DNA of 64,000 nucleotides, from the NCBI GenBank assembly GCA_963779615.1, contig CAVZZA010000003.1, forward strand, positions 576,001 through 640,000. The letters are read 5' to 3'. Positions within the stretch are counted from its first letter, which is position 1, and each line of letters begins with the position of its first letter. The position numbers and the translations under genes are program-made. Under the pieces are notes generated by a model. It saw only the letters and a program-made list of their open reading frames with translations, searched no databases and was not told where the DNA came from. The stretch comes from an uncultured Nitrososphaeraceae archaeon (GTDB lineage Archaea > Thermoproteota > Nitrososphaeria > Nitrososphaerales > Nitrososphaeraceae). This document shows positions 21,571 to 23,885 of this stretch, piece by piece.

Positions 21571-22284
21571 TTAAGAATTAACAACCCTAAAAGTAACGGC
21601 ATTGCCCATGATACGGAGCATTTGATGCTCTTCACTTCTTTTAGGTATGGAATCACTATTTAATGAAAAGTCAAAAATCCTGCCTTTAAAATCAACTTTG
21701 CATTCTTTGCTAGTTGGAAGTGCGTATGCGTTTGACAAATCAGTTTTAGCAGAAACAGAGCCTTTAGGATTAATATGCATATAATCATTTATCGTGGGCT
21801 GATCACGCTTCATCATTATACCCTCATAAGGAATTTCTTTACCGTCACATGTAACTTGAAAGATCTTTCCCTTTATACCTTCAAATGGTGTGTACCAAGT
21901 GAGAACCCAAACATGTTCGGTGGAGAGATTTTCCAATGTAAAATTAATGATAATGGGGTCCCCTTTGGCATATTCATCATGAGCACCTAGTTCGAATCTA
22001 ATCTTTTTGTTAAATGCTGTTTCCTTGTTTGTTTCCATGATTGTTTTTAGGTCTTGATCATCTAAAAGTAATTCCCACATATTGAAATTCTTATTCTGTA
22101 TAGGTATCGTTTCATCTTCCAATCCAATTAATTTTACTAGTCCTTGTTTAGATAATTTCACATATCCCGACGTTCCCTCCAAGGCATTAATTTTAAGATT
22201 AAGAAATACTGTTATTGCCATTGTAGTTGTAAAGAGACACACAATAAAAATGAAAAATCGATTAGAATGTACCATAGACACCAT
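21571..22284 (-). CDS. Secreted stand-alone M35 pro-domain homologue (no catalytic domain)
   Basis: Signal/TM N-terminus; FTLEN..VLTWYTPFEG..YEG..KR..P...DY..I.P...DL..AY aligns with the N-domain of 22812-23885; no HExxH. Confidence 0.78.
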   Translation of the reverse strand: MVSMVHSNRFFIFIVCLFTTTMAITVFLNLKINALEGTSGYVKLSKQGLVKLIGLEDETIPIQNKNFNMWELLLDDQDLKTIMETNKETAFNKKIRFELGAHDEYAKGDPIIINFTLENLSTEHVWVLTWYTPFEGIKGKIFQVTCDGKEIPYEGIMMKRDQPTINDYMHINPKGSVSAKTDLSNAYALPTSKECKVDFKGRIFDFSLNSDSIPKRSEEHQMLRIMGNAVTFRVVNS

Positions 22285-22332
22285 CTTATAAATTTACAAT
22301 ATAATCATACTGCTCTTTTCGTTTAGTCTTTC

Positions 22333-22795
22333 TCAAACTATTTTATTATGCATTTCATCAAACAAGTCATACCAATGCACAACATATTCTAATTTGGGGT
22401 TGTTGTAATTTTTTGCAGGAAAAGCAATCATCAAACATTTCAAATCTATCCTCCAGATACTGAATTGTTCCTCACTGATGCTTTTCCTATATGGTGAATG
22501 TGTATAATGCTTTATCTTCAAAAATCCAAAAGCTGGAGGATACTAGGTGGCACCACCGCTTGATAATGGATGTTTGTCACACCCCTACCAAATCTTCCAG
22601 AAACTGTTCAGCAAAAGCATATTTTTCAAAAGAAATACAAAGTCAAGATTTGCGTTATCGGCTGGTTCAACTACTAGCAGCCAAAATCCAGATATATTGA
22701 TTGCCCCTTTAGGTAAGCAAATCTACAGTAAATTCTGCCATTTTCTTTCTATTTTTCAATCTATTCTTTGGCCTGTACTTCTTGTTATGAAGATA
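22333..22795 (-). mobile_element. Second degenerate IS6-family transposase relic
   Basis: KYRPK..MAEF..DKHPLSSGGAT*YP..FLKIKHYTHSPY..WYDLF across frames; similar to the 4584-5165 relic. Confidence 0.65.
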
Positions 22796-22811
22796 CAGTG
22801 TTGAGGATACC

Positions 22812-23885
22812 TTACATATCTAGTGGTGGAGTGTTTTCAGCAAAATACTCATGGCTATCTGCATTAGATATAGCGTCTGACGGATTGTCTATTGCCAGCC
22901 GCCTACACCTAGGTTGGCCATAAACATTATCGTCTGTCCCAGCTACTACATTAAAATGGCTCGTTTCATGTACTATGGTTCCGGACCTGGAATCTGTTCC
23001 TGTCACAGAAGCACTCCAAAAAGCATCGCATAAGAAAATCTCATAAGGTTTTGCAGGATAAACGTATGCAAACACACCGGGTCTACAATCCTCCATTGAG
23101 CAATTGAATATTATTCTTTCATTCGTGAAAGCATTGAGTATCTTGTCAAAATTGCCTATTACTTTATTGAAGTTTTGCTCTGAATACTCTCCAAACCATT
23201 CTCTGTAGCGACGGGCACTAGGTCTATTAGATTCTGAGCTATTGGATAATTCACTTTGTGCTTGTTCAACAATGTTCTTTGCTTGACTCAAAGAGTCTTC
23301 TATTTGATTTTGCTGGCTTGTTGTACACGCTCTAAAGTTAGGGAGTTCTGAGGTAGTGGCCAATAGTGTACTCCATTGCAATGCTACACCGTTAGATGTT
23401 TTAGCTGCCCTATCTTCTAGAAGGTTAAACTGAACAGTGTTTGAACGAAGTCTTTGTTGGCGAAAATCATGTGTTTCTGAAAACCTAGTTGCCAATGTCT
23501 TAGGTTCTTCCGTTCCAATATCTAACACCCGTGAATCAAATTCAACAGCATAGTTACCAGCTTTAGAAATGTCATATACCTCAGCAAGATCGAAATCTGT
23601 TGAAATTGTTTCATTTGGATCTAAAGTGATGTAGTCATCCGGTGTAGGGGCTGCTCTTTTCAAGACTTTTCCTAGGTATACTGCTACTTCTTCGTTCCTT
23701 TTTACCCAAAATAAATCGTTGTTACCGATGCCGTCTATCGGCAATTGCCATTTTAGCACATTCAAGGTTTTATTTGAATTATTGGTTAGAGTAAATTTAA
23801 CATCTATCCCATCTTGTCCTCTAATTTGACGATTATCTAATCCCAAGTTTATTGAAAGATTGGAAATTTCATTATCATTTGACAT
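22812..23885 (-). CDS. M35 (aspzincin) peptidyl-Lys metalloendopeptidase-like protease with pro-domain
   Basis: HETSH, GTDDNVYG, NADSHEYFAE, FAYVYP; start MSNDNE at 23885 with a TATA-like TTTATATA about 25 bp upstream; no signal peptide. Confidence 0.9.
   Translation of the reverse strand: MSNDNEISNLSINLGLDNRQIRGQDGIDVKFTLTNNSNKTLNVLKWQLPIDGIGNNDLFWVKRNEEVAVYLGKVLKRAAPTPDDYITLDPNETISTDFDLAEVYDISKAGNYAVEFDSRVLDIGTEEPKTLATRFSETHDFRQQRLRSNTVQFNLLEDRAAKTSNGVALQWSTLLATTSELPNFRACTTSQQNQIEDSLSQAKNIVEQAQSELSNSSESNRPSARRYREWFGEYSEQNFNKVIGNFDKILNAFTNERIIFNCSMEDCRPGVFAYVYPAKPYEIFLCDAFWSASVTGTDSRSGTIVHETSHFNVVAGTDDNVYGQPRCRRLAIDNPSDAISNADSHEYFAENTPPLDM

Follow-up and report, generated by a model that had tools for sequence, protein, structure and literature searches.

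The window, a stretch of 64,000 nucleotides from an uncultured Nitrososphaeraceae archaeon (contig CAVZZA010000003.1, positions 576,001 to 640,000), carries two open reading frames (ORFs) on the minus strand. ORF A is, as read from its sequence, an intact zymogen of the M35 aspzincin metallopeptidases, presumably of the peptidyl-Lys type, and ORF B, downstream of it, encodes a stand-alone homologue of the M35 pro-domain. ORF B belongs to a large, old and widespread paralogous family, for which there is no Pfam or NCBIfam model, and is not the result of a local truncation. It is fairly probable that ORF B is a trans-acting, propeptide-like inhibitor of M35. The family would have descended from an M35 pro-domain and would travel with the M35 zymogen gene as a two-gene module, its product inhibiting the mature M35 in trans as the enzyme's own pro-domain does in cis.

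An earlier note on this DNA had claimed that ORF A is an M35 zymogen, that ORF B is collinear with its N-terminal part, and that ORF B stops before the catalytic domain would begin, all of which is borne out. ORF A matches the Pfam model Aspzincin_M35 (PF14521; E 7.5e-44, 150 bits against a cut-off of 30) and the precursor of AsaP1, an M35 enzyme of Aeromonas salmonicida (2x3a; E 1.1e-64), over residues 24–354, so that both the pro-domain and the catalytic domain are covered. From residue 184 it also matches mature GfMEP (1g12; E 1.8e-33). In a single BLASTP comparison, ORF B (residues 99–235) and ORF A (66–208 of a 409-residue reading from an alternative in-frame TTG start at 24041, which adds 52 residues) share 43 identities in 143 positions (30%, E 5e-15), and the motifs listed in the note lie inside this alignment. 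When the profiles of the two families are compared by hhalign, the match (probability 100, E 4e-42, 153 columns) runs from residue 88 to 237 of ORF B and from 3 to 161 of the M35, which is the entire pro-domain. The C-terminus of ORF B falls about 20 residues short of the point where the mature M35 domain would begin, which in the 357-residue form is near residue 184.

The structure predicted for ORF B points the same way. The AlphaFold2 model has a mean predicted local distance difference test score (pLDDT) of 85.4, with block means (10 residues) of 96–99 across residues 91–237 and a poorly predicted linker that ends in a helix at 76–92. When the beta-sandwich is searched with Foldseek the top four matches are AsaP1 chains (E 1.7e-7 to 1.3e-6; best root-mean-square deviation 2.3 Å over 142 columns), followed by generic beta-sandwiches at E of about 1e-3. 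The AsaP1 propeptide (residues 35–118, E 6.3e-6) is also the sole sequence match of ORF B in the PDB at E≤10. There is no match to ORF B in Pfam at E≤0.1, including the emfourin model PF20242, nor in NCBIfam at E≤0.01, and its nearest clusters in the ESM Atlas are unnamed, the nearest named one being BsuPI (intracellular proteinase inhibitor) at 0.89, which is below the counting level.

A decayed HExxH domain downstream of ORF B, which the earlier note had put forward as one finding that would speak against its reading, was not found by tblastn of the M35 against positions 20914–21570 at E≤10. Both this lack of a catalytic remnant and the large family of proteins of similar size speak against ORF B as a truncated M35. 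A HMMER search of 1.84 billion cluster representatives gives 1475 matches at E≤1e-3 and 373 at E≤1e-10, and 109 of the best 150 representatives are 130–260 residues long. Among these best 150, seven have an M35 catalytic domain, four a META domain and one a sub-threshold PF02102, with no Pfam domain (E≤1e-4) in the other 138. A word-indexed search finds 45 relatives of ORF B at 42–85% identity, much above the 30% that it shares with the pro-domain of the neighbouring M35, and the 141 stand-alone members that were aligned have invariant residues in common. The pro-domain-like module is fused behind the META domain in P0098, P0099, P0142 and P0162, and in four other proteins (P0051, P0114, P0152, P0188) the query is matched twice, by stretches that lie apart and may be tandem copies of the domain.

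The stand-alone gene is usually found beside an M35 gene. A scan of one genome per species gave 13 loci, of which 11 (L012–L022) are usable; L024 has tandem full M35 genes and no stand-alone gene, and L023 runs off its contig. A full M35 gene is the direct neighbour in 7 of the 11 (L012, L014, L015, L018, L019, L020, L022), with no more than about 320 bp between the reading frames, and lies about 2–2.1 kb away in L013 and L017, for a total of 9 of 11 genome loci. L021 has fragments only. The linked genome loci span Nitrososphaerales, Methanothrix, Deltaproteobacteria, Acidobacteriota, Calditrichia, WOR-3 and Moorena. In a scan of metagenomes, an M35 pro-domain and/or catalytic domain is present beside the stand-alone gene at 35 of 52 loci, where the stand-alone gene is upstream on the same strand in 21, downstream as in the window in 9, and head-to-head with the M35 in 5. 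One of the 17 unlinked metagenome loci, L076, may itself be M35.

The two genes are head-to-head in the nearest relatives of the window (L012, L025, L026, L032, L036, L051), and the tandem order in the window, with an insertion sequence (IS) relic in the spacer, therefore looks like a secondary rearrangement. That an IS6 relic separates the genes and that they were once adjacent had both been proposed in the earlier note. The first holds, and the second fits the relatives, where M35 and stand-alone genes are usually direct neighbours. The 22372–22579 segment matches eight other sites of the same genome at 69–77% identity, which encode DDE transposases of the IS6/IS240 type with 180–201 residues (PF13610, E 2.2e-11; intact copies at L004:1193-1735 and L005:1417-2022). 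The window copy has about 208 bp of the 3' part of the transposase gene, broken over two frames with frameshifts and stops, and on this sequence is a relic and not a functional IS element.

No other copy of the pair is present in this genome, which has just the two genes. Among 60 relatives (33 in the same genus), no match to ORF B and none to PF14521 was found, and a sample of 400 genomes from the phylum gave no hit to the pro-domain profile; these results hold for the genomes searched and do not amount to absences. The module is rare in the lineage of the window, and this genome carries it as accessory DNA.

In a tree built from 39 stand-alone domains with 32 cis pro-domains, all of the stand-alone rows are on one side of one branch. 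Well-supported stand-alone sub-clades mirror the sub-clades of their partners' pro-domains, as in co-diversification: the window stand-alone domain groups with P0002, P0008, P0012, P0014, P0019, P0031, L012 and L013 (97), and the window M35 with P0195, P0196, P0198, P0215, L012 and L013 (97). For nine pairs the longest contigs are equal in size, which suggests that the members of each share a contig (P0196/P0002, P0198/P0008, P0215/P0014, P0221/P0026, P0250/P0034, P0253/P0032, P0298/P0038, P0270/P0044, P0306/P0039). Tight linkage and mirrored phylogeny together point to the neighbouring M35 as the target.

Conservation in the family is highest in the loop P152-Y-E-G-I-M-M-K-R-D-Q-P163, in which G155 is present in 141/141 stand-alone members, R160 in 140/141, Y153 in 138/141 and K159 in 114/141. 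Its Lys-Arg pair is kept in the cis pro-domains of M35 (Lys76 in 114/115, Arg77 in 111/115) and is common to AsaP1 (IKRAAP), where the equivalent lysine is Lys85 by alignment count. In the AsaP1 zymogen structure a lysine of the propeptide is reported to occupy the S1' pocket and so to block the active site. The conserved D343/E346 segment of ORF A presumably belongs to this pocket, and the enzyme would cleave on the amino side of lysine.

A complex was modelled from the mature M35 (181–357) and the stand-alone domain (92–237), each with its own alignment, and the interaction prediction score from aligned errors (ipSAE) was 0.87 (runs 0.88, 0.86, 0.87), with controls at 0.00, 0.00 and 0.48; the mark used for this score is reached by 116 of 157 solved complexes and by 2 of 215 mismatched pairs. 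From run to run at least 95% of the contacts are the same, with a partner pLDDT of 91. In the model the interface is formed by loop 152–162, residues 155–160 run antiparallel to residues 276–271 of the M35, which form the edge strand of the active site, and the most confident contacts are those of K159 with M35 residues 271–274, 288, 303, H306, E307, A342, D343 and E346. Inhibition would thus involve the loop Y153-x-G155-x-x-x-K159-R160 lying along the 271–276 strand, with Lys159 sitting by His306/Glu307 and the Asp343/Glu346 pocket for the substrate lysine. The structure prediction that the earlier note had called for has in this way scored above its best control, and what the model supports is a likeness, not binding: in it the stand-alone domain takes up the pose of a cis pro-domain. 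Homology, fold, the lack of a catalytic domain, family size, linkage and, in most pairs, matching leaders are shown by these data, whereas we infer binding, inhibition and the biological purpose.

Two other roles can be considered from these data. The beta-sandwich may have been recruited for a task unrelated to M35, such as binding or adhesion, with the linkage as a leftover, or, as a variant, ORF B may be a decaying truncated M35. META fusions in four of the best 150 representatives, the loci with no M35 neighbour and a fold that is a common beta-sandwich would suit this, but the pair is kept in archaea as well as in five or more bacterial phyla, with three gene arrangements, the most conserved segment is the loop that would face the catalytic site, and there are both the lack of a catalytic remnant and the invariant residues of the 141 aligned members, all of which leave it a small chance. 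That the stand-alone gene precedes the M35 gene in 21 of the 35 linked metagenome loci would suit a folding helper or activation regulator acting in trans on the folding or secretion of the M35 or on the timing of pro-domain removal, with no lasting inhibition, and the pro-domains of many secreted proteases are in general intramolecular chaperones. Every partner M35 inspected keeps its full pro-domain, however, so that a second foldase would be redundant, and it is the loop that would plug the active site that is best conserved in the family; the chance that ORF B is such a helper is accordingly put as small.

Where the two proteins are located bears on inhibition. A leader was scored where the Kyte-Doolittle mean over 13 residues reached 1.85 or more anywhere from an in-frame start codon to the domain, and 40 pairs could be judged at both N-termini, L051 being left out as its M35 N-terminus is outside the match. 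The signals agree in 36 of these 40 pairs, with no leader on either protein in 25 and a leader on both in 11; the L020 stand-alone protein, which scores 1.70 and is just under the rule, was counted as having a leader for its Cys-containing end. The reverse of the window arrangement, a leader on the M35 only, is found in 0/40. In the bacterial pairs the M35 has a signal peptide and, at its C-terminus, a hydrophobic tail and then basic residues, and the stand-alone protein is lipoprotein-like. The agreement of leaders, a feature of the sequences, fits two proteins that meet. Leader classes follow clades, and therefore represent a few events, not 40. The C-terminal hydrophobic stretch and basic residues of the M35s in L015, L018, L019 and L022 are a possible anchor or sorting signal.

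In the window itself the earlier note had described a leader on ORF B and none on the enzyme, and this is what is found: the hydrophobic helix 7–35 that AlphaFold2 models in ORF B would be a signal anchor or signal peptide, and the 54 in-frame residues 5' of the ORF A ATG peak at a Kyte-Doolittle value of 1.12, so that ORF A lacks a hydrophobic N-terminus whether read from the ATG or from the TTG. The ten nearest M35 homologues inspected likewise begin directly with the pro-domain, at the same start. The charges flanking the ORF B helix leave its orientation ambiguous in the window, L012 and L013. We infer both 'secreted' and 'inhibitor' as descriptions of ORF B, and the leader may be a membrane anchor. 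In the window clade the stand-alone protein would have gained an N-terminal membrane helix and linker, the protease having stayed leaderless.

Several observations weigh against inhibition of the neighbouring M35. A leaderless M35 is paired with a leader-bearing stand-alone protein in 4 of the 40 pairs (window, L012, L013, L025), and if the domain faces outward in this clade, ORF B and the M35 would therefore be in different compartments. The M35 keeps its own pro-domain, which makes the need for a second inhibitor less than obvious. In 27/141 family members the residue at position 159 is other than Lys. The score of the complex may reflect memory of the solved AsaP1 zymogen (2x3a-c, a single chain), and the control that scored 0.48 is the one where the partner was kept and the protease replaced. 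The branch that parts the stand-alone from the cis pro-domains is weak, at 25 in the Shimodaira–Hasegawa-like approximate likelihood ratio test (SH-aLRT), with neighbouring forks at 60. L016 has no M35 within 6 kb, the second copy in the same metagenome-assembled genome (L018) having such a neighbour, and 17 of the 52 metagenome loci have no M35 neighbour, 12 of these on contigs shorter than 2.2 kb. Some loci are near-duplicates or kin (L022 with L070–L072; L060/L061; L064/L065; L052/L055; L014/L035), and there are therefore fewer independent events than the counts indicate.

The mismatched leaders of the window clade, and the lipobox-like N-termini of about 62 of the best 150 representatives (a crude pattern), are also what would be seen if the exported or anchored domain were a shield that guards surface proteins against incoming M35s, whether of kin or of competitor bacteria or fungi that secrete Lys-specific M35, and not against the cell's own cytoplasmic enzyme. 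Emfourin is proposed as an immunity protein for protealysin (PMC9505478). The linkage to the cognate M35 and the mirrored phylogeny nevertheless indicate the neighbour as the target, and both proteins are leaderless in 25 pairs; such a shield is considered unlikely. Under inhibition of the neighbouring M35 in trans, the purpose would be to keep the activated protease in check in the producer, as emfourin does for protealysin.

Free-standing homologues of pro-domains are known as inhibitors in trans from MEROPS families I9 (subtilisin-propeptide-like) and I29 (cathepsin-propeptide-like). The PepSY domain, a propeptide module of M4 metalloproteases, also occurs alone in many proteins and is a proposed peptidase regulator, inhibition being largely a proposal; in this it resembles ORF B, but the two differ in fold and family, and no PepSY match to ORF B is found in Pfam. 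The SUB1 propeptide-like protein of Plasmodium is reported as another stand-alone propeptide-like inhibitor (PMC6993865). The logic of the I9, I29 and SUB1 inhibitors would be shared by ORF B if it does inhibit M35, but they act on serine or cysteine proteases and their folds are unrelated to it. Emfourin (M4in) is a small inhibitor encoded in one operon with a leaderless metalloprotease zymogen, to whose active-site region it binds 1:1 (PMC9505478). Similarly, 25 M35/stand-alone pairs are leaderless on both genes, and an emfourin module adjoins ORF B; emfourin differs in that it has no match to ORF B and is not derived from the propeptide of its target. The closest relative in structure, AsaP1, shares the fold, sequence homology and Lys-Arg loop, but its domain begins the enzyme chain itself and is cleaved off upon activation, whereas ORF B is encoded by a gene of its own, has its own N-terminal helix and linker, and is joined to a catalytic domain by nothing that could be cleaved.

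In the literature searched, neither a propeptide-like stand-alone family nor a dedicated protein inhibitor was found for M35. The principle is thus known, from subtilisins and cathepsins and from emfourin operons, and an M35-directed family was not found in that literature, Pfam or NCBIfam. There is about an even chance that this would be the first free-standing, propeptide-derived inhibitor of a metallopeptidase family, present as a lipoprotein in bacteria and as a cytoplasmic partner in archaea, that with leaderless M35s it forms a module like that of protealysin and emfourin, possibly of a toxin-immunity kind, and that two such modules lie side by side in the peptidase island of this genome; 'widespread' here refers to soil and sediment bacteria, with the protein as a lipoprotein. 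M35 peptidyl-Lys metallopeptidases serve as reagents in proteomics (Lys-N), and in pathogens of fish and plants they are virulence factors. If ORF B inhibits M35, it would provide a handle on how these enzymes are held in check, a tool to control Lys-N-type enzymes and a name for more than 1000 clusters of unnamed small proteins, and would carry the principle of the freed pro-domain as inhibitor, known for serine and cysteine proteases, over to a family of zinc proteases.

The catalytic residues of ORF A are those of an intact M35. H306, E307 and H310 are invariant in 115/115 M35 homologues, D319 and D343 are kept in 114/114, and E346 in 114/115. The GTxDxxYG motif supplies the Asp that is the third zinc ligand of M35 aspzincins (PMC12924839). 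In another assembly (P0211, on a contig of 252227 bases), a 281-residue protein shares 99% identity with ORF A along 61% of the length of ORF A, and the sequence of this protein changes frame after ...AQSELSN; a near-identical strain or assembly may thus have a frameshift in the M35. Many leaderless M35s (L014, P0223–P0311) have four hemopexin-like repeats (PF00045). Lysine content was compared as a possible sign of resistance to a Lys-specific protease: the median of the stand-alone cores is 4.8%, that of the cis pro-domains 8.0% and that of the mature domains 4.1%, values confounded by taxon composition, and the counts for the window proteins run the opposite way (stand-alone 13/145, cis pro-domain 8/151, mature 4/174).

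Little of the stretch is covered by public sequencing runs. Parts of the M35 gene (22811–23732) are matched at about 95–99% identity by short contigs from three soil RNA libraries, which is no proof of transcription. ORF B has no such contig, a DNA run alone covering 21887–22178, and such lack of cover proves nothing.

Table 1. Positions in the window of the two genes, their domains and motifs, and the neighbouring genes.
Feature	Position or length	Strand	Basis or remark
M1 aminopeptidase gene	from 25894	plus	
M28 aminopeptidase-like gene	24478-25452	minus	PF04389, E 4.5e-35; upstream of M35 gene
ORF A, predicted M35 zymogen gene	22812-23885	minus	357 aa from ATG at 23885
ORF A cis pro-domain, residues 1-161	23403-23885	minus	AsaP1 propeptide alignment; hhalign against stand-alone family
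Cis pro-domain loop YLGKVLKRAAP	23646-23678	minus	
ORF A mature catalytic domain, residues 184-357	22815-23336	minus	GfMEP match
HETSH (HExxH zinc-binding/catalytic motif), residues 306-310	22956-22970	minus	
GTDDNVYG (GTxDxxYG motif), residues 316-323	22917-22940	minus	
NADSHEYFAEN, D343/E346 segment	22833-22865	minus	
Spacer between ORF A and ORF B	527 bp		With IS6/IS240 relic
Decayed IS6/IS240 DDE transposase gene fragment, C-terminal part	22372-22579	minus	Between ORF A and ORF B
ORF B, stand-alone M35 pro-domain homologue	21571-22284	minus	237 aa
ORF B N-terminal hydrophobic helix (predicted), residues 7-35	22180-22266	minus	AlphaFold2
ORF B pro-domain-like beta-sandwich (predicted), residues 93-237 (145 aa)	21574-22008	minus	AlphaFold2, Foldseek
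ORF B loop PYEGIMMKRDQP	21796-21831	minus	Lys159 codon 21808-21810
Emfourin gene	20608-20913	minus	PF20242, E 4.8e-20
162-aa ORF with hydrophobic N-terminus	20021-20509	minus	No family; between emfourin and M4 genes
Thermolysin-family M4 gene	18850-19872	minus	PF02868 and PF01447

In the order of transcription on the minus strand, the M28 gene is followed by ORF A, the spacer, ORF B, the emfourin gene, the 162-residue ORF and the M4 gene (Table 1). The M4 and emfourin genes (18850–20913) are a second module of protease plus small inhibitor, directly adjoining the M35 pair, and the M4, to judge by its N-terminus, would be of the leaderless protealysin type. An M28 gene accompanies the M35/stand-alone pair in the window and in the two Nitrososphaerales loci, L012 (9434–10426) and L013 (7108–8082), as if these genes made up a small, conserved cluster of peptidases. 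In L012 there is an M43 gene as well (7572–8657).

Proteasome subunits, an ATP-dependent DNA ligase and a G+C content of about 36% are archaeal marks of the genome, and the closest homologues are labelled Nitrososphaerales or Nitrososphaeraceae. There are no tRNA genes in the window. The G+C fraction is 0.32–0.385 up to about 30 kb of the window and 0.39–0.455 at 30–42 kb, and the low part contains IS fragments (11792–12656) and a ParB-like gene (17466–18353); the peptidase cluster may lie in acquired DNA. The M1 ORF has 741 residues with HEAT repeats at its end, and a 140-residue HEAT-repeat ORF begins 20 bp on in another frame, both within 25894–28561; these may be a single gene that a frameshift has divided. 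Two ORFs that overlap in different frames (13937–14881, LodA_N; 14826–15584, LodA_C) are the parts of a split LodA-like L-lysine epsilon-oxidase, and a flavoprotein gene (12750–13910) adjoins them. It is only an idea that a Lys-specific endopeptidase, aminopeptidases and LodA would make a route from protein through lysine to ammonia, which would suit an ammonia oxidiser.

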